Shown here piece by piece: positions 6,928-59,792 of a stretch of 64,000 nt of DNA. The notes under the pieces were generated by a model. The model had not been told where the DNA came from. It ran no database searches and saw only the letters and a program-made list of their open reading frames with translations. The translations under genes were made by a program, and so were the position numbers. The DNA is from Elusimicrobiota bacterium (lineage in GTDB: Bacteria; Elusimicrobiota; UBA5214; JBBAAG01), in assembly GCA_041658405.1 (NCBI GenBank), contig JBBAAG010000001.1:43386-107385 (forward strand), in the 5' to 3' direction. The stretch's first letter is position 1; the number at the start of each line of letters is the position of its first letter.

Positions 6928-6928
6928 A

Positions 6929-10981: not shown

Positions 10982-11034
10982 CTTATATCGACAAATGGCC
11001 GGGTTGAGGAAATTTTGGGGAAGGGACGATTACG

Positions 11035-11343: not shown

Positions 11344-11348
11344 ATAAG

Positions 11349-11939: not shown

Positions 11940-11941
11940 TA

Positions 11942-14130: not shown

Positions 14131-14135
14131 ATGTA

Positions 14136-14564: not shown

Positions 14565-14595
14565 AAATGTTTTATTTTACCTCCGATAAATTATT

Positions 14596-35467: not shown

Positions 35468-35491
35468 AATAACGCAGGAGTTCCGTTATTT
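35467..35491. terminator. Hairpin terminator between convergent dfx and the 934-aa gene
   Basis: The perfect 8-bp inverted repeat aaataacg/cgttattt has a 9-nt loop and is followed by ttgcaattt. It overlaps the last codons of the minus-strand gene. Confidence 0.35.
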
Positions 35492-38290
35492 TTGCAATTT
35501 CAGTATAAGCTCCGCGACCTTCCGCCGCATTGCGTATAATGTTTCCGGATCATGCGTAAAGTCCGTCAACGTTTTCACAACTTTATCATCCACCGCGAGT
35601 GCAGCTTCGATCTCCGCTACGAGTTTAGTGTCAAGTTTACGTTTAGACTTAGCTTTTTCATACAAGTTTCTTAACATATAAAAATACTCATAATCCTCAA
35701 GGCCGTCACGTATATTTTCAAACCGTATCGTCGATAACGGCCCCTTAGGACCGGGGCAAAGAATACTGCCGTCACCGTTTGAGGTATCAAAACTTGCGGG
35801 GTTCCAGTCGGTATACGGCCCGGATTCAATCGGGTGCGTATTATTCGGCCACCGTGTCATCGCATAGTATAGATATCCGTCAGTTTTGTACTTAAACGAC
35901 ATCGCACCAAGTAAGAGCCGTGCTTCAATCGCGGGGTATTCCACAAACCAGTTGGCATAGGGATGTTTCGGCCCTATACACGTGTACCACCACACTTTCT
36001 TACCTTTTGCCCTAACCTTTTCCGCAAGGTCAAGGTTATACTTCGGTGTCAGCGGTACCCAGATATCCACGCAGTCAAGCCCGGTTTCCAGCCCAAATGA
36101 ATGGTCATACGCAGTTGTCATGGTCGGTACTTCCGGGGCAATAGTTTTGAGGTACCCAAAAATGTCTTTCATAATAGGAAATGTTTCTTTATTAATCTCG
36201 TCAAACCCGTAGAAACATATGCGGTCCATAGCGTTTAGACGGCGGAGAACCGGTAGCATTGCTTCATACTCCGATTTAGTTTTTTGCCTGAATTCGTCAG
36301 TAAAAACTTTTTTGGGATCATAAATATATTTCAGGTTACACATTGTCATCCCGCGGGGCATAGAGTATTCCAGAATTTCCTGATCCATAAAAGTTCTGCG
36401 GTATAAATAGTCCGGGCTCACGCGGTGGTCAAGGATAAACCCGCGGTAGGAAAAGTCTAGTTCTTTAGTCCACGAACTTTTGTATATGTTTTTAACGAAA
36501 CTATCGTAATAACTGAACGCCGTGGGTAACGACGGCTGCTGGGGTAACTCAAAATTCCAGACGGTTATTTCCAGTCCGAGAACAATACTGCCCTGCCCTT
36601 CGGTATTAACCGTGAGTTTGCCTTTGTAAACACCAGCCGGGGTATCCGTCCCCGCGTGAATGTTGACCCAGAAACAACCGGTTTCTTCTTTTTCATAACT
36701 CGCTGAGGCCAGAAAGTCGAGGATAGGATCCGGCCACCACCCCACGAAGTCCACTCTGTAATGCCGTGACGGATCCGCTGTGTGTACGTACCCCATAATG
36801 CCGGTAGTGATATCTTTCCCGGGCTTAAGCACACTTTTTTTGTCTGCACTCAATAAATCGGATACTGTCACGGACACGTTAACCAGTTTTTCAGTAATCG
36901 GTATCACTACTACCTGGAACGCTTCAGATTCATTTTTTGCAAGTTCCACTTTGATATTATCACGGAATTCCGCAGTTACCGGCCGGCTTGAGATAAACAC
37001 TTTCCGCATTGGCGGTTCGTACCCCACAGCGAACTTCGCGTCGGGATACACGGATAAGGTGTTGACATACAACACCGCTTTCCTGCACTGTAACCCAATA
37101 GATTCAAGCCGGGTGATTGCGGTATCCCAGAGTTCACCCGTAAGTTCCTCATAATCCTTCAACCGCTGTTCAATTGACAGTATTTCATCGTCAAGGCCAG
37201 AGAGTGACCTCATAACTTTTTCGTACGTCTCAGGAGAGGATTTCTCAAGTTTAGCAGCGTATTGTTTTACGGTATTTAGTTCCGCACGGATACCGTCAAC
37301 ACTGTAAGCCGGGGAGGAAAGTGTCACGGAATACCAAGTACGGTATATAGGGTTCCGCCCTTCATCACGTATCGTAATTTCTATATCCGTCACCTCGTTG
37401 GATAATATCCAGTACTTAACCTCTGACCAATAATCGGTAGTGATCAATGGTGTCGGCGGTGTCTTTACCGCCATATTACCCGCTACCTGTGTTACACGGC
37501 CACGGAAGCCCGAAGGGAACGGGGTAAAACTAATTACGTTCTTACCCCAATAAGGTTTTGGTACATCGGTTACCTGTACACAAGTGTTTGTACTATTAAA
37601 TATCAACTGCCCGAACTGGTCCGGTTGGTGGTAGTCCGGGTCAGTTTTTGCCCACATAGTGTAATCCTTACGTTTAACCGCATTTCTTGCGAAGTTACAC
37701 CAGATATACGATCCCGGGACAGGGGTTGAGGATATACCGATATCGTTAAACGGAAGTTTTAGTTCTGTAATCCAGGAATAGGTTGTACGGGTAACTGCAA
37801 GGGTTAATCCCTGTGCATTCCAGGTTTTCCCGCCCTTACCGGTCTCATCGTATACCGTACCGGAAGAGTTTATAACGAAATGATAGTAAGACTGGTAAGT
37901 GGATTGTTCCGTAAAAAATAGTTCGATACTTTCATTCTCCCATACATGTCCGTCACGCTTGGCAACTGTAGAAACTATTTTACTTATCTGCGGTTCGTAA
38001 CACTCAATCCCGGCATATACCGCTTCCGGCGTATAGTACATTTTTACCTTGGTTTGATGGTTAACCCAGTTTTTAGTATTAAACGAAACAAAGCCGGTAA
38101 TCCACGTAGCCTTACCCCATTGCGGATCATCAAGCATGCCGTCAATTTTTGTATCACCTTCAACCATTGGGATTGCGAGGATATTGTTCAGCGGATACGC
38201 GGAGTGCAGGGTTTGGGTTAATCCTGAAATTAACAGTGCGGATAGTACGGTTACCAATACAAGTAACGGTTTTACATTTCTTAACATCAT
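35486..38290 (-). CDS. Large secreted protein: N-terminal CBM9/DOMON-like carbohydrate-binding domain plus C-terminal glycoside-hydrolase-like region
   Basis: It has a signal peptide. IDGMLDDPQWGKATW...ENESIELFF matches the CBM9-like pattern that recurs in the 39405, 41070 and 59961 genes. Length is 934 aa. Confidence 0.5.
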   Translation of the reverse strand: MMLRNVKPLLVLVTVLSALLISGLTQTLHSAYPLNNILAIPMVEGDTKIDGMLDDPQWGKATWITGFVSFNTKNWVNHQTKVKMYYTPEAVYAGIECYEPQISKIVSTVAKRDGHVWENESIELFFTEQSTYQSYYHFVINSSGTVYDETGKGGKTWNAQGLTLAVTRTTYSWITELKLPFNDIGISSTPVPGSYIWCNFARNAVKRKDYTMWAKTDPDYHQPDQFGQLIFNSTNTCVQVTDVPKPYWGKNVISFTPFPSGFRGRVTQVAGNMAVKTPPTPLITTDYWSEVKYWILSNEVTDIEITIRDEGRNPIYRTWYSVTLSSPAYSVDGIRAELNTVKQYAAKLEKSSPETYEKVMRSLSGLDDEILSIEQRLKDYEELTGELWDTAITRLESIGLQCRKAVLYVNTLSVYPDAKFAVGYEPPMRKVFISSRPVTAEFRDNIKVELAKNESEAFQVVVIPITEKLVNVSVTVSDLLSADKKSVLKPGKDITTGIMGYVHTADPSRHYRVDFVGWWPDPILDFLASASYEKEETGCFWVNIHAGTDTPAGVYKGKLTVNTEGQGSIVLGLEITVWNFELPQQPSLPTAFSYYDSFVKNIYKSSWTKELDFSYRGFILDHRVSPDYLYRRTFMDQEILEYSMPRGMTMCNLKYIYDPKKVFTDEFRQKTKSEYEAMLPVLRRLNAMDRICFYGFDEINKETFPIMKDIFGYLKTIAPEVPTMTTAYDHSFGLETGLDCVDIWVPLTPKYNLDLAEKVRAKGKKVWWYTCIGPKHPYANWFVEYPAIEARLLLGAMSFKYKTDGYLYYAMTRWPNNTHPIESGPYTDWNPASFDTSNGDGSILCPGPKGPLSTIRFENIRDGLEDYEYFYMLRNLYEKAKSKRKLDTKLVAEIEAALAVDDKVVKTLTDFTHDPETLYAMRRKVAELILKLQK

Positions 38291-38307
38291 AAAAAAACGG
38301 TTCTCCT

Positions 38308-39408
38308 TTATCTATTTTCTATTAACTTCAACGCTTGACTAATATAATCCGGCACGGATGACGATGGGGTGGGGGGATATACAGTAAGCATACGCCGACA
38401 TTCTTCAATTGCTGCGGTATATGATATTTTTTTAGGAACTTTACCGAATATTTTATCCGCATTTGATGAGTATATCTTCCTCAAAACTTCTTCCGGGAGG
38501 TTAAGCCCGTGCAGGACATACTTCCCAGCTTCCCAACGGTCATCGGATTCCATCAACCGCCGGATATGGAGTATATGGTTCACTGATTTCTCAACGCTAA
38601 ACTTACCTCCGCGCAAAGCGTTATCACTGCCGAAAACTATGCGTTCGCTGTATTTGACAAACATTTCCCGGGTTGTATCCAAGTTTTTTGCGATATCAAA
38701 ATACACCCAACTCCCCGGAGTGATATCCATATAAAAATTCGGGTATTCTTCGAATATCCGTGATAACCTCGGGATGTTGTGTGTCATAAAAAACATATGC
38801 GCAAAAACGAAATTTACACGGGGATGGCGTTTAACCACGCTTAATGCATCCTGCCACAAAAATTCCAAGGTCGGATAAGTATTGTCGTATACCCATCCTT
38901 TGGCTTTCAAATGTTCCGGCGCATTGATGAGGTCCCAGTATATAAGCGGGTCTCCTACGTGCCAGAGAACCGGGAGGTTATTGGTTTCTAACGATTTAAA
39001 AAACGGGGTGAATACCGGCGAACCGATTTTGTGTTTATAGCTAACATAATATTCTGGCTTGGATTCAATAAGTTTGACACCATCAAATCCCAGTGCGTGT
39101 ATCCGTTCCGCCTGGTGTTCCAAGGCTTTCGCTGCAGAAGGTTCGTCCATATCAAACACTTCAACATCATCCGGTGCGCCAAGGCCGTAAACTTTATCCG
39201 GATACAACACTTTTGCGGCAAGTACCACGGGGTTAGAGTTCACCCGTGACATTACTTCACTCCCGGGTTTCATATGCCCGAGAGTAAGCATCCCGAACTT
39301 TGTTACACCACACGCTGAGGATGATAGTCCGTCAACACAGGTGCGGATGTCCCCGGGTACATCGCAGTGTATATGCGTATCAAAAATATTTGTATTATTT
39401 ATTTTCAT
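38308..39408 (-). CDS. Amidohydrolase-2 family TIM-barrel hydrolase
   Basis: DTHIHCD is an HxH metal site, and HVGDP is present. Length is 366 aa. There is a 4-bp overlap with the upstream gene. Confidence 0.55.
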   Translation of the reverse strand: MKINNTNIFDTHIHCDVPGDIRTCVDGLSSSACGVTKFGMLTLGHMKPGSEVMSRVNSNPVVLAAKVLYPDKVYGLGAPDDVEVFDMDEPSAAKALEHQAERIHALGFDGVKLIESKPEYYVSYKHKIGSPVFTPFFKSLETNNLPVLWHVGDPLIYWDLINAPEHLKAKGWVYDNTYPTLEFLWQDALSVVKRHPRVNFVFAHMFFMTHNIPRLSRIFEEYPNFYMDITPGSWVYFDIAKNLDTTREMFVKYSERIVFGSDNALRGGKFSVEKSVNHILHIRRLMESDDRWEAGKYVLHGLNLPEEVLRKIYSSNADKIFGKVPKKISYTAAIEECRRMLTVYPPTPSSSVPDYISQALKLIENR

Positions 39409-41051
39409 TTGAAATACAGTTTAATAAACTTTTCCGGGCTGTGATACGTACGGTCAACTTTAGCTAATGAAACTGCCAGTTTACCCTCAGAAATATTATG
39501 CCCCAGGTTTATGCCCCATACATTCGTTGCGCCTATGGTGTTAATCGGTACCACAAATTCTGTACTCCAGAACTTATCCCCGGTATACGCTGCGGTTTTC
39601 CAGCCGGTTGCGTCCCATACAGTGTCATGTGTCTTCCCGCGGGAAGCTGACCTGTCATCAAATACGGTATTATTTGTATTAACTACAATACGATAATACA
39701 TATTCCCGTCAGCTGAGGGGTCGATATATAGTTCTATACTATCATCTTCCCAGACTTTACCGTCATGTGTGACTGCATCTTTTTTTATGCTATCCTTCAC
39801 TTTGATATCACACATTACTCCAATGTACAAGTTTTTGTCATCATACGCGAAGTATGCGGTGGTACCATATAGAACAGGCGCGTTATTTACTTCATTAAAA
39901 TCTGAGACGGTAACAACCGAGGTTGATATCCAAACTTTATCATCGAGACGGCCGTCGAGGATAATACTGCTATCCCCCGGGTTTTTGCTTAACGTCAACG
40001 TTTTCTCCTGTGCAGCAGCTATACTCGAACCAGCAGATGATATTTCGTCTCTCATCTGGTAAGTTGTTTGGATATAGAATTCAGGTTTTATGGTTAATGG
40101 TATAACAAACTCCTGTTCTTCTTTAATGCCTTCATGATAAATCCGGACATCCGAATGGATGGAATCCACGTTCTTCGGTGAGTTCCATTTTGGCGCTGGT
40201 AATTTATCAATGGGAAGCATGTATACTGTCCGTACCTCTATACGGTCTTTGTAAACCTTGAAGTATCTATAGCATACCGAGTTCACCAGTGCACTGGTAT
40301 TTACCTGATGAAAATTGTTATTGCGGGTATACGCGTTTATATGGTTATGCCCGTTAATGAAAACCACCGGGCGTGTAATGCCTTCCTGTGTAAGCCACTG
40401 TGTAAAACTTGCCGGGATAAAGTCCAGCCCGCGTTTTTTCATTGCACCGCCATCACGGCATGATACCGCAGGATAGTGTGTCGCAATAACCACCGGGAGG
40501 TTGCTATGTGCCTCCGCGTTTTTTATGATCCAGTCAGTCCATTCCCGCGCATCGGATTTTCTGAACGTAGCACCAATGAAGTATACCCCGGATTTTTCAA
40601 ATTCGTAGTTAAGCGCAGGTGTGCCAAAAACTATCGCGTAATTCGTTTGTTCCAGCGGTAATGCCACAACAGCTGTACTGGTTGCAACGTCGTGGTTTCC
40701 TCCCAGAATGAAGAGTTTGGTGTTAAGTTTTGACATTATTGACTTAAACTTTTCCATACTTTTAACATCGCCGTAGTTCGCAATATCGCCGGTCACTACC
40801 ACAAAATCAGGGACTGAATGATATGTTTTATTATTTATTGCATTAACAAACATTGTGAGGTACTTAATATTTTCCTGGTACGGGTTCCGTAACGCAGGGT
40901 CAGGGTTGTCGTCAGACATTATATGGACATCCGTTATTTGCGCAAATGAACATAACGGCGTTTCTGCTGCTGACTTTACAGGCTTTCCCGCACTGTACGC
41001 CTGCGGAGAAAATGTTAGAAAAACCAGTACCGCCATTAATAACCTTAACAT
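39405..41051 (-). CDS. Secreted calcineurin-like metallophosphoesterase fused to C-terminal CBM9/DOMON-like domain
   Basis: It has a signal peptide. ITDVHIMSD, VVTGDIANYG and GGNHD are phosphoesterase motifs. The C-terminus GRLDDKVWIS...EDDSIELYIDP is CBM9-like. Confidence 0.65.
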   Translation of the reverse strand: MLRLLMAVLVFLTFSPQAYSAGKPVKSAAETPLCSFAQITDVHIMSDDNPDPALRNPYQENIKYLTMFVNAINNKTYHSVPDFVVVTGDIANYGDVKSMEKFKSIMSKLNTKLFILGGNHDVATSTAVVALPLEQTNYAIVFGTPALNYEFEKSGVYFIGATFRKSDAREWTDWIIKNAEAHSNLPVVIATHYPAVSCRDGGAMKKRGLDFIPASFTQWLTQEGITRPVVFINGHNHINAYTRNNNFHQVNTSALVNSVCYRYFKVYKDRIEVRTVYMLPIDKLPAPKWNSPKNVDSIHSDVRIYHEGIKEEQEFVIPLTIKPEFYIQTTYQMRDEISSAGSSIAAAQEKTLTLSKNPGDSSIILDGRLDDKVWISTSVVTVSDFNEVNNAPVLYGTTAYFAYDDKNLYIGVMCDIKVKDSIKKDAVTHDGKVWEDDSIELYIDPSADGNMYYRIVVNTNNTVFDDRSASRGKTHDTVWDATGWKTAAYTGDKFWSTEFVVPINTIGATNVWGINLGHNISEGKLAVSLAKVDRTYHSPEKFIKLYFK

Positions 41052-41069
41052 TAAAACGCCTCCTGTTTG

Positions 41070-43199
41070 TTATAATACCTTTTTTAGTAAATAAGTTACA
41101 ACCTTACCCGGCTGGATAACAACTTCAGCGTCAATACTTTTACCTGCCAGGCAGGAGTACCACAATGATTCTGTATTGTTCTGGTAATCATATTTATACA
41201 ATGCATACCCGTTACTTTGTTGTAATGAATACTCCGCAGGGTTAATATTAAACTTAACCGAAACTGGTTCATTAACCGCGCAGTTTGTCAAAATAACGCA
41301 TACCGTATCATCATTTTTGTTATACCACGCAGAAGATTGTATTACCGCCATTTTGTGGGTTAACGTATTAGCCCAGATTTTGCGGGTTACTTCCACCTGC
41401 AGGACCGTATCCTCAATCCTTACAGGCATAGCGTACTCACCGGAGACAATATATTTTGATAATGCCCTCCGCGCCTGTGCAAGGGTTTTTAGGTACTCAC
41501 CTGCCGGGGTGGGTGATGGAAAAAAGAGTTCTGATGGTAGATCCCACGCAAGCTGCGCGCCAAAAGTAAAACATTCCGCTACGCGCGCACGAAAAGATTG
41601 GTGATCGCCTTTAAGTTCATGTTCCGCTATGTAATACATTCCGAAAGTAGAGGTGTACCCGCTGTACACCGCGGAAAACAGGGGGGCCATATCGTCACCG
41701 CAGCAGTTTACCATTAACTGGTTATCTATAAAATCAATATACGGTTCCGCATTACCTTCGGAAGTAATAAAAAACTGCGGATTTTCTTTTTGTCCATAAG
41801 TTTTTACCTGTTCCAGTAACTTACGGTAACTGCGTACCCATGCGTCACGCCCGCCTACAGGATGGGCGTGTGAGGCGTCATAACACAGTTTTGGGGGTGC
41901 AATCGCGATCTGGTCAATATAAATACCGTCTATACTGTAGTCTTTAATAAGTTTTTTTACGAGGTTAAGCACAATTTTTCTCCAACCCGGTGCGGTGGGG
42001 CACATAACACAGAGTTTACGTTTTGATGCGTAAAGTTCAATACTGACTTCACCGGTACTATCCTTCACGGCAAGAGGTTTGCCTGTGGTTTCAAACTCAG
42101 GGTTCTCACTGTCATACAACCGGCCGTTGATATACGGCATCACAGGGATATTGTTATCCTTCAATGTTTTAACTTCACCCGCAAACTCCGCTTTCGCTGG
42201 GAAGTAGTGCGGGTACGTATGGTCAAACGGTATCTGATGCCAATAATAGTAGTGGCACGCCAGAGGGATACCCAGGTACTGCGCTTTTTTTACGACATCC
42301 GCTGCCTGGGTACGTGTAGGACGAGGGGAGTTAAGCCCGGCGTTTGACCAGATAACGGTATCCAGCATTACCGGTGAATAATCTTTACGTTCATCAATCC
42401 TGCCTTTTGAACACCACAGTTGTTTTACCGCCCAGGAACGGTACTCTTTCCCTGCAGTATACCACCCGCCGGAGAGAGGTTTAAGAATAAACGCGTACTC
42501 GAGGTTCACCGTTTTTGGCTGGTTAACAAAATCTTTTGGGAAGTTTGTTATCGAATACTTTATTGTATGTTTAACTTTATCAGTCTCAAGGTTGAACTGT
42601 TTAATCCCGGCATTCCCGTCACACGCAGCGAGGTATACACTTTTTTCATTGCCTTGTAATGCATCACTATGATCTGTCTGCCCGATAAACTGCATAACAT
42701 AATGACCCGGATAGTATGGTGATAGGGTTTTATAGCGGTCACATGCATTTTTAATAACACGGCCCCAGCCGTCGCATAAGATAGTTTTTGAATCCTTACC
42801 CGCGGATACAGTGATTACCGGGAAATGCAGTTTGTTTAGTTTCCACATACCGTCATCAGGACGGGCAAGTTTTATTTTCCATAAAACATTACCGGCATCG
42901 TTGTCGTACTCAAGCCGGACAGTAACGTCAATACTTAACGTTTTACTTTCTTCAAACACTTTCCGCCACTTAAGCGTTACGCTATCCGGCGTATCCTGTT
43001 TAAGCGAATACTTACCCGGTAAAAGGTTGGTGAATACAGCTGTAGTTTTAGTTTCAGCATTAACAAATTCTGCATGCCATAACACTGTCCCGGGGATAAA
43101 GTTATAGGTTAGTCCCTGAATCCCGGTATTACCCATGTGTTCAATTGACCCGGTCTTATCATTAAATACGTGTAAAAGATTCTGTATCTGTATTTTCAT
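41070..43199 (-). CDS. Hypothetical 709-aa protein, possible glycoside-hydrolase-like TIM barrel (GHL)
   Basis: It is collinear with the neighbouring secreted-protein genes. The central region has YYYWHQ, GIYIDQIA and CYDASHAH-type motifs. I recognised no clear family. Confidence 0.35.
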   Translation of the reverse strand: MKIQIQNLLHVFNDKTGSIEHMGNTGIQGLTYNFIPGTVLWHAEFVNAETKTTAVFTNLLPGKYSLKQDTPDSVTLKWRKVFEESKTLSIDVTVRLEYDNDAGNVLWKIKLARPDDGMWKLNKLHFPVITVSAGKDSKTILCDGWGRVIKNACDRYKTLSPYYPGHYVMQFIGQTDHSDALQGNEKSVYLAACDGNAGIKQFNLETDKVKHTIKYSITNFPKDFVNQPKTVNLEYAFILKPLSGGWYTAGKEYRSWAVKQLWCSKGRIDERKDYSPVMLDTVIWSNAGLNSPRPTRTQAADVVKKAQYLGIPLACHYYYWHQIPFDHTYPHYFPAKAEFAGEVKTLKDNNIPVMPYINGRLYDSENPEFETTGKPLAVKDSTGEVSIELYASKRKLCVMCPTAPGWRKIVLNLVKKLIKDYSIDGIYIDQIAIAPPKLCYDASHAHPVGGRDAWVRSYRKLLEQVKTYGQKENPQFFITSEGNAEPYIDFIDNQLMVNCCGDDMAPLFSAVYSGYTSTFGMYYIAEHELKGDHQSFRARVAECFTFGAQLAWDLPSELFFPSPTPAGEYLKTLAQARRALSKYIVSGEYAMPVRIEDTVLQVEVTRKIWANTLTHKMAVIQSSAWYNKNDDTVCVILTNCAVNEPVSVKFNINPAEYSLQQSNGYALYKYDYQNNTESLWYSCLAGKSIDAEVVIQPGKVVTYLLKKVL

Positions 43200-43211
43200 A
43201 GTGTCTATATT

Positions 43212-44558
43212 TTATAAAACCGCGTGTTGTTGTTTCAATACCTGTCTTAACTCTTCCACCCGTGTAATCAACCCGCGGGGGGTAATTTTGTTTTTTATGC
43301 ATAACGCTGCAGCTGCGCCTGCTGCGTGTCCTACCACCGCAACGATCGGCATTATCCGCATTGCACCCTGTCCCTCCCGGGTAGAGGATATACACCGCCC
43401 GGCAATTAGCATATTATCAATTTTCAATGGGACAAGGCAACGGTAGGGTATATGGTAATAATCCCCGGGTTTTGGCCCGCCGGACATAAACGTTTGTGAT
43501 TCTTCATCATGGAGGTCAATCGGGTAATTCCCGCAGGCAATACCGTCATCAAACTTTTTTGCGTTTATAACATCCTGCCCGGAGAATACGTACTCACCGG
43601 TTATCCTCCGTGTTTCACGTACGCCAATCTGCGGAGCGGTAGTCGTGATAAATGAGTTTTTGAACCCCGCAACGTTATCCCTCAAAAAATTCCATACCAT
43701 CCATGCCTGGTACCGCGCGTCTACCTCCGCGGTGGTTAATCCTTCACCGGTGGAACCATCCAGCCCGGGTACATGCGTGGTATTGAGTTCAACCTCACCC
43801 GGGATAAGCGTGGAATAAAAAAATATGTGCTGGTGGATAGGTTTTGGGTAGGTGCCTTCCTCCTGGCCTTTTTTTGTTAGGTCAAAATATCCGGCAATTG
43901 ATGCACGGGATGCACCTTTTGTTTTGGTTGACCACTTAAAAAACTGTTCCGGTGCTGCAGCTACGTCATCAATAGTTTTGTCAATCTCCACCCCGCCGAT
44001 ACGGAACATCAGCGTCATTGCCTGAAGTTCACCGGTTGGGTGCTTACCTTTTTCATAAGGTACTCCGGAATAGTATGCAACATCACCGTCACCCGTGGCG
44101 TCCACCACAATTTTTGGGGTTATAGCAAACAATTTTGATTTCCCTGAAAATATGAGTGCGTCCACCCTGTTATTTTCTACTACAGCATCCACTACCTGTG
44201 AATGAAAGACAAGTTGTACTTTTGAGTCAACCAGCATCTCAAGCAGCACCTGTTTCATTCCTTCCGGATGGAATGCGTTTTGTATAATCGCATTCTTTTT
44301 TGCCAGCCGGTCAAGGATTTCCTGAAACAATCCGCCGCATAAAGATTTCTCGCCGGATTTCCAGTTCATAAATATACTTACCCCGCCGGCTGTACCGTCA
44401 CCGCCAAGCATACCCAGGCGTTCTACGAGTAAAGTCTTCGCGCCGGTACGCGCTGCAGCTACTGCTGCGCAAACTCCGGCAATCCCGCCCCCGGTTACCA
44501 GTACCTCAGGCGACTGGGTTACTTCCACACTTGTTTTGTACTCAATAGTTTTTGGCAT
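43212..44558 (-). CDS. FAD-dependent oxidoreductase (FAD_oxidored family)
   Basis: VLVTGGGIAGVCAAVAAARTGAKTLLVER is a Rossmann GxGxxG FAD-binding N-terminus. Length is 448 aa. Confidence 0.7.
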   Translation of the reverse strand: MPKTIEYKTSVEVTQSPEVLVTGGGIAGVCAAVAAARTGAKTLLVERLGMLGGDGTAGGVSIFMNWKSGEKSLCGGLFQEILDRLAKKNAIIQNAFHPEGMKQVLLEMLVDSKVQLVFHSQVVDAVVENNRVDALIFSGKSKLFAITPKIVVDATGDGDVAYYSGVPYEKGKHPTGELQAMTLMFRIGGVEIDKTIDDVAAAPEQFFKWSTKTKGASRASIAGYFDLTKKGQEEGTYPKPIHQHIFFYSTLIPGEVELNTTHVPGLDGSTGEGLTTAEVDARYQAWMVWNFLRDNVAGFKNSFITTTAPQIGVRETRRITGEYVFSGQDVINAKKFDDGIACGNYPIDLHDEESQTFMSGGPKPGDYYHIPYRCLVPLKIDNMLIAGRCISSTREGQGAMRIMPIVAVVGHAAGAAAALCIKNKITPRGLITRVEELRQVLKQQHAVL

Positions 44559-44592: not shown

Positions 44593-45480
44593 TCATAACG
44601 CCACAAGTACTACTGCTGTAAAGAAAAATAGCATACTGACAAACCCCGGGACCGTGGGTTTCTCTCCCAGGAATAACATACCAATGATAAACGTAAACGG
44701 TATCATACTGGAGGTTAGTAATGCTGCCTGTGATGCTGCGATGTTTTTTAGGGATACCATAAAAAATATTTCTCCGGTGATAAGACATAAACCGGAGATT
44801 ATACTGTACACCACACCATGTTTTGTGTAGCCCGGTTTTGTGAAATAAGATAATATCAATAATCCGATCACCGCGAAGATAGCTTTATAAAACATTGCAT
44901 TAAACGGCATGTAGAGAGTTAATACGTATTTAGTAAATACCGTACTTGACCCCCAGGATAATGCAACAAGGACTGCGCCAATCATTGCTACCACCGCGGT
45001 AGTAAGTTTGTTGTTACTCTTACTATTGTTTTTCTCTTCCCCGTTCCCGCTGAACATAGTCATAATCACTAACCCGGTAATAACGCAGAGTAGAGCAAGG
45101 AAGCTTAACAGCGTAAGTTTTTCATGTAAAAAAAGTACCGCCAGAACAACAGTCCATACCGGTGAGGATGAGGATACCGGCCCGACACGGTGTAGGCTAT
45201 CAAGTTTGAGAACATAAAAGTATAGTGTTGCACCGACAATCCAGCCGGTAAGGCTTGCCATAAAGATAGGGAATATCATCCGCGGTTCTATCGGCTGAAG
45301 CCCTTCGATCCCCAGTGTGGCAATAAAGATTAATACTACAAACACGATAAACCGTATGGTATTGAGTCCCACAGTCGTAGTGTCCCGCATTGCAATCTTA
45401 CCGAAATACATTGCCAGAGTCCAGAATACCGCGGCTAATATACACAAAATACTGTAGATAAACATATTTACGGCTAACAA
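44593..45480 (-). CDS. EamA/DMT-superfamily permease (10 TM)
   Basis: It has two repeated 5-TM halves with the EamA pattern and is highly hydrophobic. Length is 295 aa. Confidence 0.7.
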   Translation of the reverse strand: MLAVNMFIYSILCILAAVFWTLAMYFGKIAMRDTTTVGLNTIRFIVFVVLIFIATLGIEGLQPIEPRMIFPIFMASLTGWIVGATLYFYVLKLDSLHRVGPVSSSSPVWTVVLAVLFLHEKLTLLSFLALLCVITGLVIMTMFSGNGEEKNNSKSNNKLTTAVVAMIGAVLVALSWGSSTVFTKYVLTLYMPFNAMFYKAIFAVIGLLILSYFTKPGYTKHGVVYSIISGLCLITGEIFFMVSLKNIAASQAALLTSSMIPFTFIIGMLFLGEKPTVPGFVSMLFFFTAVVLVAL

Positions 45481-45591
45481 CTACTTTCTAAAGATAAACC
45501 ATATCCGCTGATCATATTTGTTTACATTATACAATATCGCGCAATTGCTTGACTTCTTATTTCAAGTATAGTAACATTTTGAGTATTATTT

Positions 45592-49767: not shown

Positions 49768-49964
49768 ATATTCACCTTTTTACTTTAAAGATTTAGATAA
49801 TATGATAATTCAAACGAGGCTTAACTTAACAAAAACCGATTACGGGCGCGATTACTAGCTTTTAAATTAATGATACTAAACAACAACTTATCAATCAATA
49901 AATATGTTTATGTTGTTATCATCATCTTTTTTGTATAATTGTAAGTATATTCGGATATAAAGAA

Positions 49965-55283: not shown

Positions 55284-55301
55284 TTGAGGGGGTAACGGAA
55301 G

Positions 55302-56003
55302 TTGAGAGTTAAGAGTTTAGGGTTACTGGTTTTAGCAACACTTTTATTTGCAGCAGGTACTGCGGAATGCAGGTTTTATACTAACGGCCCGAAGGATGGC
55401 GGTAGATTTGTAGCGTTAACGTTTGATGACGGGCCTGGGCAGATGACTCCTGACTTTCTTGCGGTACTTGAGAAACAAAAGGTTAAAGCAACCTTCTTTA
55501 TGTCAGGCAGCCAGGTTAAGTATCATCCGGAAGAAGCTAAGTTGGTAGCAAAAGCCGGGCATGAGATCGGGTCGCACACCACAGTCCACCGGGGGTATCA
55601 TAAGATAAAAGTTATTGATGAGAAAGCCATAAAAATCCTTACTGACGATATCAAACAAACCGAGGCGGTACTCAGCACTACGATCGGTATAAAACCGCAT
55701 CTTCTGCGGTTTCCCTATGGGTACTGCAAAAAATGGGCGATTGATGTATGCGCAAAACTGGGATACGACGTTATCAACTGGTCCTATGGGTATGACTGGA
55801 CAAAATTGTCTGATCAGCAGTTATTGGATTACTACGTAAAAAATTCTGCACCCGGTGCAATAATTCTTATGCATGACGGGTGGAAGGTAAACCGTGTTCT
55901 CGCGTTATTACCAAAAATTATTGAAGATATCCGCGCGAAAGGGTATGAGTTCGTTACCGTAAGCGAGTTATTGAAGTTAGAAGATAAAGGGAAGGGTAAG
56001 TAA
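55302..56003 (+). CDS. Secreted polysaccharide deacetylase (NodB homology domain, CE4)
   Basis: It has a signal peptide. LTFDDGP and HTTVH are catalytic motifs. Confidence 0.75.
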   Translation: MRVKSLGLLVLATLLFAAGTAECRFYTNGPKDGGRFVALTFDDGPGQMTPDFLAVLEKQKVKATFFMSGSQVKYHPEEAKLVAKAGHEIGSHTTVHRGYHKIKVIDEKAIKILTDDIKQTEAVLSTTIGIKPHLLRFPYGYCKKWAIDVCAKLGYDVINWSYGYDWTKLSDQQLLDYYVKNSAPGAIILMHDGWKVNRVLALLPKIIEDIRAKGYEFVTVSELLKLEDKGKGK

Positions 56004-56008
56004 CCGGG

Positions 56009-56275
56009 ATGAGTATATTTGAGATCATAATGCTTCTCTGTTTTGGTGCGGCATGGCCGGTCTCAATCTACAAATCGTGGGTATCAAAGAATAACAGCGG
56101 GAAAAGTGTTACTTTTTTATATATCATTGTCATAGGATATGCCGCAGGGGTAATACATAAACTGCTCTACAGTTGTGACTGGGTGGTATATCTTTACGTT
56201 TTAAACGGAATAATGGTTCTCATAGATATTGCGTTGTATTATCGTAATAAAAACAGTGCTAAAGGGAATGCGTGA
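56009..56275 (+). CDS. Small 3-TM membrane protein, PQ-loop/SemiSWEET- or LAB_N-like
   Basis: It is 88 aa. The pattern CFGAAWPVSIYKSWVSKNNSGKSVTFLYIIVIGYAAGVIHKLLY resembles the LAB_N / PQ-loop repeat. Confidence 0.3.
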   Translation: MSIFEIIMLLCFGAAWPVSIYKSWVSKNNSGKSVTFLYIIVIGYAAGVIHKLLYSCDWVVYLYVLNGIMVLIDIALYYRNKNSAKGNA

Positions 56276-56934
56276 TGGTTGAACCCAATATTTTTGAAGC
56301 GCAGATAAACGAACACGCGGTATTCCAGGATGAACTCCTGGAACGTGAACGTGTTGTATGGACCGGTAAGCCTGATCCTAATATAATCTTCGGTGCAGAG
56401 GATTGGTTTATGATACCGTTCTCCATTTTTTGGACCGGATTCAGTCTTGTATGGGAAGCTGCTGCATGCGGAATGTTTTTTGTTAATAAACACAGCGGGA
56501 CTAACACCATACCGTCAGGGATTGATTTATTCACATACATATTCCCGTTGTTTGGATTACCCTTTGTCCTTATCGGCCTATACCTTTTATTTGGACGGTT
56601 TATATATAAACACTACCTCCGCAAGAAAACGTTCTACGCTGTAACTGACCAGCGGGTTATTATCGTCACCACGCTTGGGAATAAAAATATGAGAGCGCTA
56701 GAGCTTGATAAAATTGAGGAGATCAGCAAAACAGTTAATTCTACCGGACGGGGTACGCTGGTTTTTGGTATCAGTACTTCATTTATTAACTATGACTCAC
56801 GAAAACAGCAGGTGGGCGGGGTGGTACAGGGTAATAGTTTCAATGATATCCCTGATGCTACAGGTGTGCATAAAGAAATCCTTACCCTGCGCGAAACAGT
56901 TATTGCCCGGAAAAAAACGGATCCGCAGGTATGA
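56272..56934 (+). CDS. Membrane protein with bacterial PH domain (YdbS/YdbT-like, DUF304)
   Basis: It has two TM helices followed by a beta-rich domain. VVWTGKPDPNIIFGAEDWFMIPFSIFW and YAVTDQRVIIV are bPH signatures. Confidence 0.5.
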   Translation: MMVEPNIFEAQINEHAVFQDELLERERVVWTGKPDPNIIFGAEDWFMIPFSIFWTGFSLVWEAAACGMFFVNKHSGTNTIPSGIDLFTYIFPLFGLPFVLIGLYLLFGRFIYKHYLRKKTFYAVTDQRVIIVTTLGNKNMRALELDKIEEISKTVNSTGRGTLVFGISTSFINYDSRKQQVGGVVQGNSFNDIPDATGVHKEILTLRETVIARKKTDPQV

Positions 56935-56935
56935 T

Positions 56936-57565
56936 ATGACGGATAAATACAATAATACTTTCGGGTATGACAGTAAAACTGAAACATGGATGCTGTTGAA
57001 AGACGTAATAACCGCCAGTGAGCGTGTTTTGTGGTCCGGTAAACCTGATGCCAGTGTTATCTTCGAAAAACTTGACTACCTGTTTATCCCTCTGGGGATT
57101 GGCTATACCTGGGTTTGTACCTCGTGGTGTGTGGGTGTGACAGAAAAAGTTGTGGAGTTATACCTGGACACAAGATTCGCGAATCCCGCGAACTGGCTCT
57201 CGCTTTTGTTTCCGTTAATCGGTGCGGTACTGATATTATCAGGATTGTATCTCACCATCGGACGGTTTGTGTATAAAACGTACAAACGTAAACGCACGTT
57301 TTATGCGCTTACTGACAAACGCGTAATCATTGTTCATGCAACTGGAGAAAAAAAGGTTACCTCAGCTGAATACAGGATTATTGATAGCATACAAAAAGTG
57401 GCAACTGCAGAGGCACGGGGAACTGTTGTATTTAGTTTATCCAGTGAAATGTTTGACCCTGAACACAACAAGGATAATATACCTGAATATTTTGTATTTG
57501 CAGATTTACCGGACTACGAACTAGTGTACAATCTTGCAGAGCCGTATTTAAAATCACAGAAATAA
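56936..57565 (+). CDS. Membrane bPH-domain protein, tandem paralog
   Basis: VLWSGKPDASVIFEKLDYLFIPLGIGY and YALTDKRVIIV are bPH signatures. It starts 1 nt after the stop of the preceding paralog. The track ORF 56705 is an out-of-context upstream extension. Confidence 0.5.
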   Translation: MTDKYNNTFGYDSKTETWMLLKDVITASERVLWSGKPDASVIFEKLDYLFIPLGIGYTWVCTSWCVGVTEKVVELYLDTRFANPANWLSLLFPLIGAVLILSGLYLTIGRFVYKTYKRKRTFYALTDKRVIIVHATGEKKVTSAEYRIIDSIQKVATAEARGTVVFSLSSEMFDPEHNKDNIPEYFVFADLPDYELVYNLAEPYLKSQK

Positions 57566-57692
57566 ACGGTTAAGTAACCTTTACACGTTAAGTGTTATCC
57601 ATTATCTCAAGATATATTTAAGATTATTATGTTTAAATAATATCATAAAAGGCTTGATATTGAATTCATAAATTATATATATTGGTGTAAAC

Positions 57693-59792
57693 ATGATGAA
57701 AATATTTTTGTCTACCTTTTTGTTAAGCCTGGCTGGTTATCTGAGTAATGCTGACTGTGCAAACCTGCAAAATAATTCTTTATACGACCCGTCATTGGAT
57801 ATTACTTCAGTTGAAGCTATGGAAAAGAGTTTAATAATAAAATTAACGGGTATCCTCAAAACACCGGTAAAATTGATTGAACTTAAACCTTACCAAAAAT
57901 ATACGCTTGACTCAAAACTGAGTATCGCCTGGCAGGGGATCCCCGAAAATAACCGTATCGAAATACCCAGGTTTGCGGGTACACAGGACAGGTTATTTTC
58001 AAAATTTCAAATAATTGATTCTAAGTCCAGGCAACGGGCCGGGAAATCTCATTATGTAAACGACTTATCGTCGGTATCATTACGTAACTTCGATTTTCTC
58101 CGGCCTGCAAGTATTAAAGGGCTTCAGGTGCAGGATGTAGAAGATGCGGTTCTTCTAGGGGTTAAACATGCGGCAATAAATATTTCGGTCTCAAGTATAA
58201 TTAATTGGTCTACCGGTACCCCTAGCGAAACATGGGAAGTAGACGGTGAAAATATACCGATTAATACTAAGTATATAAGTAGATTAGACACTACCTGCAA
58301 AAACCTGACTGCTGCAGGAATTGATATTACCGGAATTCTTCTTAACCATGTGCCGGATAGCCCAAACCCGCAAAATTATTTAATTCATCCAAAAACGGAT
58401 TTAGCTAACGCACCGAATCATTTAGGAGCATTTAATACGGCTACTGACCCCGGGTTACGTTACTATCATGCAGTAATTGAATATCTGGCTAACCGTTACT
58501 CTGATCCAACGGGTAAATTCGGCTGGGTTTCCGGTTACATTATTGGTAATGAAGTTCAGTCACACCTGGAATGGTATAATATCGGTAAAATCACGTTATC
58601 TGATTTTGTTGAAGATTACGGGATTGCTTTACGGATTGCCGATCTTGCAGCAAGAAAATTTCATTCTAAAATCCGGATTTACGTATCCTTAGACCATCAT
58701 TGGAGTACAGCCCTTCGCCCTGATCCGTTAACGGCATTTAATGGTAAAGAATTTGTGGAACAATTAACTATTTGGTCAAAAAACAGCGGTGATTTCCCCT
58801 GGCATATTGCTTTTCATCCGTACCCGGAGAACCTTTTCGAACCGCGGTTCTGGAATGACCGGATGGCAGTATTAAGTTTTGACACACCCAAGATTACTTT
58901 TAAAAATATTGAAGTATTACCTGCGTTTCTAAACCAGGATATTTTATTGTACCGAGGTCAGCCGCGACGGATTATTCTCTCAGAGCAGGGATTTCATACA
59001 CCAGCGGGGATAGACGGCGAAAAAGTTCAGGCAGCTGCTTATGCATATGCTTTCCATAAACTCAGCCATCTGCCGGGGATAGACGCATTTATTCTTCATC
59101 GGCATGTAGACCATAAAGGAGAGGGTAACCTGAGGTTAGGTCTTTGGACCTGGACAGAAAATGATCCTAATGCTTCTAAGCCTGATAAGAAAAAATATAT
59201 ATATGACGTGTTCCGTCTGGCAGATACCGCACAGCGGGAAAGTGTATTCGAGTTCGCCAAACCAATCATTGGAATAAAAGATTGGGCTGAAACATTACCC
59301 GTACTTTCTACAAGTACTTATACTAAACTATCCTGGAATCCGGTCCCGGAGGAAACAGAATCTGTTGTTATCAATTTAACTGACAATATAAACAATGCCG
59401 TACTTACAAACTGTTTATCCTGGCGTAGTGAAGTTGTACTTTATAACGAAACCCTAAAAAAATCTATTTTCCATCATCCTAAGGAACTAGCTGATAGTGA
59501 CGCTACTTTTACGATTAAGCTCCCTGTTCTGAAGTCAGGAAAAAAGTTGAGTTTCGTATTTGGTACCGGTTTAACTCATGAAAGTGTTGATGGTGCACGG
59601 TTTTCTGTCTTGATTGACGGTAAAGAATTATGGGATGTTTCTGATAAAAATACGGTAATAAACGAATACAAAATTGATTTAACACCATGGGCTGGGAAAA
59701 CTGTTTTATTAACCCTCCGGGTAAACCCGCTGGAAAACACTCAATATGACTGGCTGGTCTGGGTGTATCCGCTGATAATCACAGAAAAATAA
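57693..59792 (+). CDS. Secreted 699-aa hypothetical protein, possible clan GH-A-like glycoside hydrolase
   Basis: It has a signal peptide. The IIGNEVQ (NEP-like acid/base) motif lies in a TIM-barrel-like region. I recognised no firm family. Confidence 0.35.
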   Translation: MMKIFLSTFLLSLAGYLSNADCANLQNNSLYDPSLDITSVEAMEKSLIIKLTGILKTPVKLIELKPYQKYTLDSKLSIAWQGIPENNRIEIPRFAGTQDRLFSKFQIIDSKSRQRAGKSHYVNDLSSVSLRNFDFLRPASIKGLQVQDVEDAVLLGVKHAAINISVSSIINWSTGTPSETWEVDGENIPINTKYISRLDTTCKNLTAAGIDITGILLNHVPDSPNPQNYLIHPKTDLANAPNHLGAFNTATDPGLRYYHAVIEYLANRYSDPTGKFGWVSGYIIGNEVQSHLEWYNIGKITLSDFVEDYGIALRIADLAARKFHSKIRIYVSLDHHWSTALRPDPLTAFNGKEFVEQLTIWSKNSGDFPWHIAFHPYPENLFEPRFWNDRMAVLSFDTPKITFKNIEVLPAFLNQDILLYRGQPRRIILSEQGFHTPAGIDGEKVQAAAYAYAFHKLSHLPGIDAFILHRHVDHKGEGNLRLGLWTWTENDPNASKPDKKKYIYDVFRLADTAQRESVFEFAKPIIGIKDWAETLPVLSTSTYTKLSWNPVPEETESVVINLTDNINNAVLTNCLSWRSEVVLYNETLKKSIFHHPKELADSDATFTIKLPVLKSGKKLSFVFGTGLTHESVDGARFSVLIDGKELWDVSDKNTVINEYKIDLTPWAGKTVLLTLRVNPLENTQYDWLVWVYPLIITEK

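Follow-up and report, generated by a model that had tools for sequence, protein, structure and literature searches.

A predicted exported metallophosphoesterase joined to a CBM9-family module in a probable glycan-degradation operon of an Elusimicrobiota bacterium

Introduction

What might a phosphoesterase do when it is exported, joined to a putative sugar-binding module and encoded among glycosidase-like proteins? This question is raised by a 64,000-nucleotide stretch of DNA (hereafter, the window) from an uncultured, anaerobic Elusimicrobiota genome. An initial annotation, made from the sequence, had proposed that a CBM9/DOMON-like module recurs in four proteins of the window, that one copy is unusually fused to a calcineurin-like phosphoesterase, and that this fusion cleaves phosphodiester-linked glycans such as teichoic acids. 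We examined the module, the catalytic domain, their gene neighbourhood and their relatives (Table 1).

Table 1. Coordinates of the features discussed, in window positions
Feature	Residues	Position	Strand	Basis
DMT-superfamily membrane transporter, EamA x2, 295 aa, first gene of the cluster		44593..45480	-	Pfam EamA 111.4 bits
p448, cytoplasmic FAD-dependent oxidoreductase (PF12831), 448 aa		43212..44558	-	Pfam FAD_oxidored E 1e-116
p709, cytoplasmic DUF6259 protein, 709 aa		41070..43199	-	Pfam DUF6259 E 3e-77
p548, metallophosphoesterase + CBM9_1, two domains, secreted, 548 aa		39405..41051	-	Pfam, AF2
p548 predicted signal peptide, MLRLLMAVLVFLTFSPQAYS|AG	1-20	40992..41051	-	inferred directly from sequence
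p548 metallophosphoesterase catalytic domain	~30-290	40182..40964	-	
p548 CBM9_1-family module	~360-548	39408..39974	-	
p366, cytoplasmic Amidohydro_2 enzyme, 366 aa		38308..39408	-	Pfam 70.1 bits
p934, secreted, CBM9_1 + GH123-like beta-N-acetylgalactosaminidase		35486..38290	-	Pfam
p934 N-terminal CBM9_1 module	~40-240	37571-38173	-	
p934 GH123-like region	~430-880	35651-37003	-	
Genes upstream of p788, second cluster		55302..59792	+	
Secreted CE4 polysaccharide deacetylase		55302-56003	+	Pfam Polysacc_deac_1 108.7 bits
Secreted DUF5722 protein, 699 aa		57693-59792	+	DUF5722 399 bits
p788, secreted, GH84-like beta-N-acetylglucosaminidase + CBM9_1		59961..62327	+	Pfam NAGidase 76.6 bits
p788 GH84-like region	~104-510	60270-61490	+	
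p788 C-terminal CBM9_1 module	595-788	61743-62324	+	

Results

Three proteins of the window carry a CBM9-family module

In Pfam searches, CBM9_1 (PF06452) exceeded its gathering cut-off of 23.4 bits in three of the four proposed carriers, namely p934 (residues 49-231, 35.9 bits), p548 (residues 365-509, 40.5 bits) and, consistently with the claim of a further copy 20 kb away, p788 (residues 604-786, 37.5 bits). The G-x-LDD-x-W ... SIEL pattern on which the initial annotation had relied stood in part: p934 and p548 carry a G-x-LDD-x-x-W motif, but its position is degenerate in p788 (SFTDEKW), and a search of the entire window in all six frames gave exactly three instances of [EDN][EDN]SIEL[FY], one in each of the three proteins.

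A profile of the window modules together with their relatives matched Thermotoga maritima CBM9-2 (TmCBM9-2, 1i82) at E 4e-15. Trp71 and Trp175 of TmCBM9-2, which form its aromatic sugar clamp and whose roles are documented (PMC8280721), correspond to W/W/Y and Y/Y/F in p548/p934/p788, and the polar sugar contacts Gln96 and Asn172 are replaced by R/H/H and D/D/G, respectively. CkCBM9.3, a proven sugar binder, likewise has His in place of Gln96, as do p934 and p788, and Gly in place of Asn172, as does p788. In p548, the candidate clamp is formed by Trp434 and Tyr536, with an invariant E440, and the modelled C-terminal module superposes on TmCBM9-2, 7nwo and 4jpq. The module common to the three proteins is a genuine CBM9-family fold with its aromatic clamp positions kept, rather than the generic Ig domain without sugar-binding residues that had been named as a possible flaw, and is presumably a sugar binder. 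The window modules are only 20-25% identical to TmCBM9-2 of Xyn10A (1I8A/1I82/1I8U) and CkCBM9.3 (7NWN-7NWQ), which sit on GH10 xylanases, whereas those of the window sit on a phosphoesterase and on HexNAc-ases; since the polar ligand contacts have changed, specificity for cellulose or xylan reducing ends cannot be assumed.

The CBM9-tagged phosphoesterase has an intact catalytic site

The proposed fusion was borne out in p548, which matched Pfam Metallophos (36.7 bits) alongside CBM9_1. This protein, present in NCBI as MFA5857497.1 with the label 'sugar-binding protein', is 100% identical to P0001, a protein of an Elusimicrobiota MAG, and its AF2 model had a pLDDT of 76. All seven metal ligands (D41, H43, D89, N119, H192, H235 and H237) and the catalytic His of calcineurin-like phosphoesterases (H120) are present, so that the loss of catalytic His/Asp that would have undermined the initial annotation was not seen; these motifs are also conserved in the paralogue P0042. 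The predicted signal peptide has no lipobox Cys and, with a Sec signal alone in a diderm bacterium, p548 may be periplasmic rather than exposed at the cell surface. Taken with the module, these features make it very probable that p548 is exported with a catalytically competent metallophosphoesterase domain and a true CBM9-family module.

Like the glycerophosphodiesterase GpdQ of Enterobacter aerogenes (2DXL/3D03), p548 has a binuclear metallophosphoesterase fold with D-x-H / GD / GNH(D/E) / H / GH-x-H ligands, a fold and ligand set that are also those of the cyclic-nucleotide phosphodiesterases Rv0805 (M. tuberculosis) and Lmo2642 (Listeria). Unlike all three, it is exported, bears a C-terminal CBM9-like module and falls below the curated CpdA/SpdA cut-offs.

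p548 lies in a compact cluster of six genes

Six co-directional genes on the minus strand run from 45480 to 35486 with gaps of at most 34 bp, the value found between the transporter gene and the next one, and a single 4-bp overlap (ATGA) between the p548 stop and the p366 start codon, which suggests translational coupling. As promoter and terminator scans of the cluster were at chance level, we infer co-transcription from spacing alone; the six genes are a probable operon, set among housekeeping genes, for degradation of a GalNAc/HexNAc-containing glycan. The amidohydrolase and the flavoprotein of the initial annotation were recovered as p366 (Amidohydro_2, N-terminal metal motif DTHIH) and p448 (FAD_oxidored, with an N-terminal GxGxxG dinucleotide fold). 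The EamA gene exists too, just past the end of the interval described there, but its designation as an exporter found no support: the protein also matches Sugar_transport (PF06800; 30.6 bits, cut-off 26.3), which makes a sugar importer as plausible. Judged from their N-termini, only the CBM9-bearing proteins and the CE4 and DUF5722 proteins of the second cluster have signal peptides or signal-peptide-like N-termini; p709, p448 and p366 have none.

The fourth proposed module carrier, p709, was rejected as such. The initial annotation had counted this ORF twice, as a GH-like protein and as a CBM9 carrier, and the first description is the one that held. In its model (pLDDT 88, pTM 0.91), a beta-sandwich at either terminus flanks a (beta/alpha)8 barrel, which is the architecture of alpha-glycosidases of families GH129, GH36, GH101 and GH31, and Foldseek against the PDB retrieved ZgGH129 (8rzk, E 8.5e-24) together with FpGalNase (9awt), NagBb (5wzn) and GH36 alpha-galactosidases. 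Pfam assigned DUF6259 only; an unfiltered hmmsearch of all six-frame window segments with the CBM9 profile found nothing in p709 even at E<=10, and hhalign of the DUF6259 and CBM9 families gave a probability of 0.3%. The CBM9-like peptides INGRLYD (residues 357-363) and SIELY (residues 386-390) are just 27 residues apart inside the TIM barrel, where N358, G359, R360, D363, E388 and Y390 are invariant in DUF6259, so that they mimic the pattern as that family's own conserved peptides. DUF6259 homologues occur in unrelated gene contexts.

The neighbours of p548 are HexNAc-directed glycosidase relatives

The neighbours of p548 are GH123-like, GH84-like and DUF6259 proteins, the last with an alpha-GalNAc/alpha-Gal enzyme fold. 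In p934, Pfam detected Glyco_hydro_123_N_2 (36 bits) and GH123_cat (82.5 bits), and the catalytic part matched GH123 and related beta-N-acetylgalactosaminidases, NgaCa, NgaDssm and NgaAt (8K2F-8K2M), at E 2e-28 to 1e-15, the nearest being the oligosaccharide-releasing beta-GalNAcases 8k2f (E 2e-28) and 8k2j; it is too distant from these enzymes for assignment of a group or linkage specificity and, unlike them, carries a CBM9_1 module at its N-terminus plus ~190 additional residues. Its segment FYGFDEIN places a DE dyad where the catalytic DE motif of the GH123-related family lies (PMC11087588), in a weak sub-alignment to 8k2h.

The third CBM9-tagged exported enzyme, p788, lies 20 kb from the six-gene cluster and matched NagJ (6pv5, E 8e-15), BT_4395 and human OGA among PDB sequences. 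Upstream of it, the second cluster also contains two ORFs with no annotation.

The fusion is uncommon but not unique

A search of 185,579 species genomes yielded no full-length p548 orthologue, and the only full-length relative among 1.84 billion representatives was P0042, a 32%-identical paralogue from the same genome. The P0042 gene divergently adjoins a gene for a 1300-residue NAGPA 'phosphodiester glycosidase', and another CBM9_1 protein, GH43 and GH106 are encoded nearby. The metallophosphoesterase subfamily of p548 is also joined to dockerin (P0049) and to fn3 plus 3keto-disac_hyd (P0160), and CBM9_1 to Exo_endo_phos and PhoD_N (PhoD-type) domains.

A second, metagenomic Metallophos+CBM9_1 lineage comprises P0002-P0004 and P0015, with similar proteins of ~570-640 residues (P0051, P0074-P0076). 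As in p548, Metallophos is N-terminal, CBM9_1 C-terminal, signal peptides are present and the neighbourhoods are of the glycan-degradation type, theirs with sulfatases (L017), beta-helix proteins and GH78-like genes (Beta_helix and Bac_rhamnosid6H at L020). These proteins are not closely related to p548 in the catalytic domain, aligning with it over the CBM9 third only, and the fusion thus arose at least twice; we found no experimental study of these proteins in the literature. The architecture, described at first as unusual, is therefore uncommon without being singular.

Discussion

Our reading of the whole locus, which we hold tentatively, is that p548 would dock on a glycan and hydrolyse phosphate esters on behalf of HexNAc-ases within a glycan operon. 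The CBM9-like module would bind a glycan chain or oligosaccharide end; the dimetal centre would then hydrolyse a phosphate ester that decorates a sugar residue or links two of them, either a diester or the monoester left once a diester had been opened; and removal of the phosphate would clear a charged block impassable to exo-acting HexNAc-ases. The DMT-type transporter would presumably follow by importing the released sugars, to be finished in the cytoplasm by the DUF6259 (GH129/GH36-like) enzyme, the Amidohydro_2 enzyme and the FAD oxidoreductase. A phosphorylated glycan is a possible physiological substrate of p548, to be regarded with some reserve: the only context that favours it is the NAGPA neighbour of P0042, which, as both proteins come from one genome, is a single observation and not independent phylogenetic support. 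No evidence points specifically to teichoic acid, and it is very unlikely to be the phosphorylated glycan in question.

Alternatively, although we find this rather unlikely, p548 might be a broad-specificity periplasmic or extracellular phosphodiesterase scavenging phosphate or nucleotides from glycerophosphodiesters, cyclic or linear nucleotides, or eDNA; its position in a glycan cluster would be incidental, and its module would merely tether it to a polysaccharide matrix, particle or envelope. Consistently with this, GpdQ is the closest solved sequence (E 0.002), the nearest folds are the phosphodiesterases Lmo2642, GpdQ and Rv0805, and the best NCBIfam matches are SpdA/CpdA cyclic-nucleotide phosphodiesterases, but across the fold p548 shares only 14-19% identity with the three solved enzymes, and the curated cut-offs were all missed by about tenfold. 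Relatives of the catalytic domain are mostly ~300-residue single-domain 'CpdA/Icc' proteins, yet dockerin, lectin-like and CBM9 modules are all found attached to members of the subfamily, and the architecture reappears in sulfatase/rhamnosidase loci. The nearest characterised relatives use cyclic nucleotides and glycerophosphodiesters, none of the close ones acting on a glycan, and the six-gene operon was not conserved elsewhere in the genomic contexts compared; against this stand the tight glycan cluster, the suggested coupling to p366, and a set of annotated neighbours among which no pst/pho genes were seen.

It is improbable that the CBM9_1-like module is a general-purpose beta-sandwich of exported enzymes, serving folding or stability, envelope anchoring, oligomerisation or a non-carbohydrate ligand as other DOMON-clan domains do, in which case its recurrence would say nothing about substrate. 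Among representative proteins, 1,126 contain the module at E<1e-10, and their partner domains differ greatly, many of the proteins having no recognisable catalytic domain; DUF5916 proteins carry it too. Even so, the identifiable partners are mostly glycosidases (GH123, GH42, GH39, GHL10, GH84). The polar contacts that TmCBM9-2 makes are lost, in P0042 the second of the clamp residues is Leu, and CkCBM9.1 is a true CBM9 with neither aromatic and no clear binding role (PMC8280721); both clamp positions are nevertheless aromatic in all three window copies. Heme-binding DOMON-type subunits (2ivf_C, 7b04_C) are among the fold matches of p548, ranking below CBM9 structures with bound sugar and a protein of putative carbohydrate-binding function.

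GlpQ belongs to the GDPD family, and the PhoD/GlpQ teichoicases of Bacillus subtilis offer a further comparison, in which no CBM9-like module is among the Pfam matches recorded for the PhoD-type protein. That p548 is itself a teichoicase or phosphoglycan depolymerase, cutting phosphodiesters in the backbone of teichoic-acid-like polymers made by nearby Gram-positive bacteria, together with HexNAc-ases acting on GlcNAc/GalNAc-substituted or HexNAc-1-P polymers, would fit the HexNAc-directed neighbours, the nearby CE4 deacetylase and the NAGPA gene beside P0042, but is highly improbable given that p548 has no Pfam match to the GDPD (GlpQ) or PhoD families, that PhoD ranks below many other metallophosphoesterases by fold, that the locus holds nothing specific to ribitol- or glycerol-phosphate catabolism, and that, for the GH123-like and GH129/36-like neighbours, the closest relatives of solved structure work on GalNAc/Gal-type (host-type) glycans rather than teichoic acids.

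For the preferred reading, in which p548 would remove phosphate for the HexNAc-ases, a phosphatase within a glycan-degradation system has a precedent in BT3783 of a Bacteroides mannan PUL, whose fold is tyrosyl-DNA phosphodiesterase-like (PMC4978465); the resemblance of p548 to BT3783, as to PhoD/GlpQ, is functional analogy only. Compared with known enzyme designs, the CBM9-tagged phosphoesterase departs only modestly.

Organization of the gene cluster

ORF listing and Pfam scans revealed six co-directional minus-strand genes running from 45480 to 35486 and separated, in order, by 34, 12, 18, -4 (an ATGA overlap) and 17 bp; the six are probably co-transcribed. Housekeeping genes occupy the flanks (EF-P, shikimate pathway, ilv/leu, CTP and NAD synthases, and a desulfoferrodoxin whose sequence assignment points to an anaerobic host). 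Since no SusC/SusD pair accompanies the cluster (no TonB-dependent receptor or SusD family among the ORFs scanned, 29.5-62.3 kb), it is not a Bacteroidota-type polysaccharide utilization locus. Promoter and terminator scanning of the cluster gave counts at shuffle level, and operon conservation, followed through DUF6259 homologues, led to unrelated contexts (BrxC/D-like genes, GH38, housekeeping). At its stop codon p548, the phosphoesterase gene with an exported product, runs into the start of the gene for the cytoplasmic Amidohydro_2 protein, which implies translational coupling although the two products end in different compartments. Upstream of the transporter, a minus-strand ORF with no family match and an un-protein-like composition was not counted as a gene; a plus-strand ORF, also upstream of the transporter, overlaps it.

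Coordinates and assignments of the features discussed
Feature	Position	Strand	Length	Assignment
Cluster gene 1		minus	295 aa	DMT/EamA transporter; Sugar_transport cut-off also exceeded
Cluster gene 2		minus	448 aa	PF12831 FAD oxidoreductase (flavoprotein)
Cluster gene 3 (p709)	41070-43199	minus	709 aa	DUF6259 protein
Cluster gene 4 (p548)	39405-41051	minus	548 aa	Metallophos+CBM9_1
Cluster gene 5	38308-39408	minus	366 aa	Amidohydro_2 protein
Cluster gene 6 (p934)	35486-38290	minus	934 aa	CBM9_1+GH123-like
ORF not counted as a gene	45522-45950	minus	142 aa	
ORF overlapping the preceding one	45592-46083	plus		
Low-GC island	48829-51962			HNH endonuclease (minus strand), Schlafen-type helicase (665 aa)
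ABC-type and CE4 region	52861-57565			ABC_tran ATPase, ABC_tran_2 protein (568 aa), then CE4 deacetylase
Overlapping ORF	56272-56934			
Overlapping ORF	56705-57565			
p788	59961-62327	plus	788 aa	GH84-like+CBM9_1

p548 carries an intact metallophosphoesterase domain

At 100% identity, the p548 protein matches the NCBI record MFA5857497.1 ("MAG: sugar-binding protein [Elusimicrobiota bacterium]"), which lies on a 256-kb contig, and it begins with a putative Sec-type signal peptide. Its Metallophos domain (PF00149) scored 36.7 bits in Pfam against a cut-off of 21.5, and residues ~30-290 hold all five metallophosphoesterase motif blocks (D41-x-H43, G-D89, G-N119-H120-D, H192 and G-H235-x-H237), comprising the seven metal ligands and the histidine of GNH(D/E); the set of catalytic His/Asp residues on which the initial annotation depended is therefore complete. 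These blocks align with those of >20 relatives and are invariant in P0042, a paralogue described below. GpdQ was the closest solved sequence, and the AF2 model (pLDDT 76, mostly >90 in the catalytic domain) matched both Rv0805 and GpdQ (Foldseek E ~1e-10), with an alpha/beta sandwich that superposes on solved phosphodiesterases. Judged by its sequence and modelled fold, the catalytic domain is an intact, very divergent phosphodiesterase-type metallophosphoesterase, whose specificity is unassigned because matches to the NCBIfam cyclic-nucleotide phosphodiesterases were partial and sub-threshold (CpdA, NF008359, 27.6 bits vs a curated 225; SpdA, NF050112, 29.1 bits vs a curated 400). Such a domain would also suit a scavenging phosphodiesterase that is merely tethered by its CBM; set beside the glycosidase affinities of the neighbouring genes, we regard this role as possible but somewhat unlikely, and lean towards an enzyme directed at glycans. 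A phage-defence role is unlikely, the only PADLOC match being a 22-bit partial one to a generic phosphoesterase model.

Three CBM9 modules keep an aromatic clamp

The initial annotation had placed a CBM9/DOMON-like module in four proteins. Three of them, p934, p548 and p788, exceeded the Pfam gathering cut-off for CBM9_1 (PF06452, 23.4 bits) with 35.9, 40.5 and 37.5 bits, but the 709-aa protein did not, and in a six-frame translation of the whole window the pattern [EDN][EDN]SIEL[FY] occurred exactly three times, once in each of these three proteins. Pairwise identity among the three modules was only 26-30%, as expected of old family members, and argues against recent duplication. TmCBM9-2 (1i82, E 4e-15) and CkCBM9.3 (2e-8) were both matched by a profile of the window modules and short relatives, and the beta-sandwich modelled for p548 superposes on TmCBM9-2.

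In TmCBM9-2 the terminal sugar is clamped between Trp71 and Trp175 and hydrogen-bonded by Gln96 and Asn172, while CkCBM9.3 clamps with Tyr and Trp and still binds sugars with His and Gly in place of the two polar residues (PMC8280721). HMMER and MAFFT alignments placed W434 of p548, a Trp of p934 and a Tyr of p788 at the position of Trp71, and Y536, a Tyr and a Phe, respectively, at that of Trp175, so that an aromatic clamp is kept in all three; W434 is the Trp of "VWEDDSIEL", the motif that had first drawn attention to the module. The sugar-binding residues are thus retained in part only, since the polar contacts are not kept (Gln96 replaced by R/H/H and Asn172 by D/D/G in p548/p934/p788). 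The paralogue P0042 has a Leu at the second clamp position. A changed polar shell would be compatible with a non-lectin role for the module, which, with the clamp in place, we consider doubtful. At the level of residues, a kept clamp within a changed polar shell fits sugar binding directed at something other than glucan/xylan ends, and we infer that the window modules may bind sugars.

The 709-aa protein is a DUF6259 member with a glycosidase-like fold

Pfam, unfiltered hmmsearch, hhalign and the AF2 model all led us to reject a CBM9 module in p709. DUF6259 was its only Pfam family, an unfiltered CBM9 profile search of every six-frame segment of the window returned nothing in it, and hhalign gave a probability of 0.3% between the DUF6259 and CBM9 families. 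Its "INGRLYD" and "SIELY" stretches, which probably misled the initial annotation, lie 27 aa apart vs ~70 aa between true CBM9 motifs and consist of residues invariant in DUF6259. The AF2 model (pLDDT 88, pTM 0.91) placed a TIM barrel between two beta-sandwiches, one N-terminal and one C-terminal, and matched GH129 (ZgGH129, NagBb), GH36 (alpha-galactosidases, FpGalNase), GH101 and GH31; the fold predicted for DUF6259 is shared with enzymes acting on alpha-GalNAc, alpha-Gal and alpha-GalN. Unlike p709, one DUF6259 homologue (P0216) does carry CBM9_1. In the literature searched we found no mention of DUF6259, to which Pfam assigns no function; its members, ~1,100-aa forms among them, are widespread across Planctomycetota, Verrucomicrobiota, Lentisphaerae, Armatimonadota and Chloroflexi.

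Hexosaminidase affinities and export signals of the CBM9-bearing proteins

p934 scored 82.5 bits with GH123_cat in Pfam, and its catalytic part was nearest to recently described beta-GalNAc-targeting glycosidases, the best match being the oligosaccharide-releasing beta-NGA 8k2f (E 2e-28). The catalytic motif of GH123-type beta-N-acetylgalactosaminidases is a consecutive Asp-Glu (DE) (PMC11087588); consistently with this GH123_cat/DUF4091 assignment, p934 has a DE dyad at the corresponding site, where its "GFDEIN" aligns with "LWDEPLN" of 8k2h in a weak sub-alignment (i-E 2.6). p788 is a distant GH84 relative and belongs to a second small cluster at 52.9-62.3 kb, together with two ABC-type genes, a CE4 deacetylase and a DUF5722 protein. 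Putative signal peptides were found in exactly the CBM9-bearing proteins plus the CE4 and DUF5722 proteins, and were absent from the DUF6259, Amidohydro_2 and flavoprotein products.

The metallophosphoesterase-CBM9 fusion is uncommon but recurrent

An exhaustive search of 1.84 billion representatives with p548 gave 1,126 proteins at E<1e-10. Almost all were matched through the CBM9 module alone and just one over the full length, namely P0042 (539 aa, 32% identity, E 3e-81), while 185,579 GTDB species genomes yielded CBM9-only matches and no p548 orthologue. P0042 corresponds to NCBI MFA5858375.1 ("Elusimicrobiota bacterium"), from the same sequencing run and an adjacent accession series, and the tetranucleotide correlation between its contig and the window was 0.949 (similar-GC controls, 0.71-0.73). 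It is thus a paralogue from the same MAG and not independent evidence.

A separate Metallophos+CBM9_1 lineage of roughly 570-640 aa (P0002-4, P0015 and others) has catalytic domains that are not close to that of p548, and its genes sit among sulfatases or adjoin beta-helix and GH78-like genes. In a sample of 51 relatives, Pfam found CBM9_1 in 47, Metallophos in 8, Laminin_G_3 in 6, F5/8-type C in 4, GH123 in 3 and GH42 in 2, with GH39, GHL10, DUF4838, Exo_endo_phos and PhoD_N once each. The fusion, described at first as unusual, is therefore uncommon and uncharacterised but not unique, having arisen at least twice; no metallophosphoesterase+CBM9 fusion, nor any calcineurin-like enzyme with a carbohydrate-binding module in polysaccharide utilization, was found in the literature. 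Relatives of the p548 catalytic domain were also fused to a type I dockerin (P0049), to PQQ beta-propellers (P0013/P0017), or to fn3, 3keto-disac_hyd and Pur_ac_phosph_N/PhoD_N-like domains (P0160), which suggests that extracellular phosphoesterases associated with polymers form a wider class. CBM9_1 is also fused to DUF5916 in many 630-850-aa proteins (metagenomic P0009-P0011, P0014), an uncharacterised architecture.

On its 60-kb contig (L001, region 1-15436), P0042 has five neighbouring genes. Four of them encode a GH43+DUF7402 protein, a DHDPS-family lyase, GH106, and a protein of 824 aa whose N-terminal match to CBM9_1 is weak (23.2 bits, slightly below the 23.4 cut-off). The fifth, divergently adjacent to P0042, encodes a 1300-aa protein combining a NAGPA "phosphodiester glycosidase" domain (106.7 bits) with fn3 and CHU_C. 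The CHU_C (type IX secretion) signal is itself unexpected in an Elusimicrobiota genome.

A candidate glycan-dephosphorylating enzyme

Many glycans carry phosphate esters as decorations or linkages, for instance phosphomannan, Man-6-P N-glycans, teichoic acids and capsular phosphoglycans. Such esters block exo-glycosidases, and to our knowledge very few accessory enzymes dedicated to "de-phosphorylating" glycans during their catabolism have been described. Taken together, the affinities of p934, p788 and DUF6259, the signal-peptide pattern and the NAGPA neighbourhood of P0042 make a HexNAc/GalNAc-glycan catabolic operon the most economical model for the six genes. The CBM9-tagged exported enzymes would act on the polymer or oligosaccharide, p548 would cleave or remove phosphate esters that would otherwise halt exo-glycosidases, and the transporter and three cytoplasmic enzymes would finish catabolism. 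Direct observation covers only the assigned domains, the residues, the topology signals and the order of the genes; a phosphoglycan substrate for p548 is our tentative inference. Functional analogues are BT3783 of a Bacteroides mannan PUL (PMC4978465) and the PhoD/GlpQ enzymes acting on teichoic acids (PMC7086022). The initial annotation holds in part, both in what it observed and in how it read this. The catalytic residues and the aromatic clamp are intact, but the teichoic-acid-specific version of the interpretation is without direct support and improbable, p548 having no sequence membership in the GDPD (GlpQ) or PhoD-like teichoicase families.

Within the phosphoglycan model, a bolder proposal, to which we give little credence, is that p548 and P0042 are lineage-restricted glycan-targeted phosphodiesterases/phosphomonoesterases that, with the NAGPA-type protein, provide a two-step "uncovering" route for HexNAc-1-phosphate-linked glycans. 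The capping HexNAc would be removed and then the exposed phosphate (or the reverse), the CBM9-like module recognising the sugar beside the phosphate; if true, no metallophosphoesterase that a CBM guides to a polysaccharide or glycoconjugate would have been characterised before it.

p548 joins two known kinds of protein, the CBM-appended exported enzyme and the GpdQ/Rv0805-type metallophosphoesterase, and offers a concrete, easily expressed candidate for a glycan-dephosphorylating enzyme; the Metallophos+CBM9_1 architecture occurs at loci for glycan degradation in several uncultured phyla. Even if the glycan link fails, CBM9_1 emerges as a tag that has been widely shuffled among exported enzymes, far outside the xylanases, and the DUF6259 fold is documented, as modelled, to be GH129/GH36-like.

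The low-GC island and the second cluster

In the second cluster, neither of the two overlapping ORFs within the ABC-type and CE4 region matched a family, which leaves the gene calls at that point uncertain. The low-GC island (36% vs ~44%) carries a helicase whose end-to-end match with the PADLOC candidate defence family PDC-S41 reached E 5e-290; this small island, situated between the two glycan clusters, probably serves defence or is mobile.
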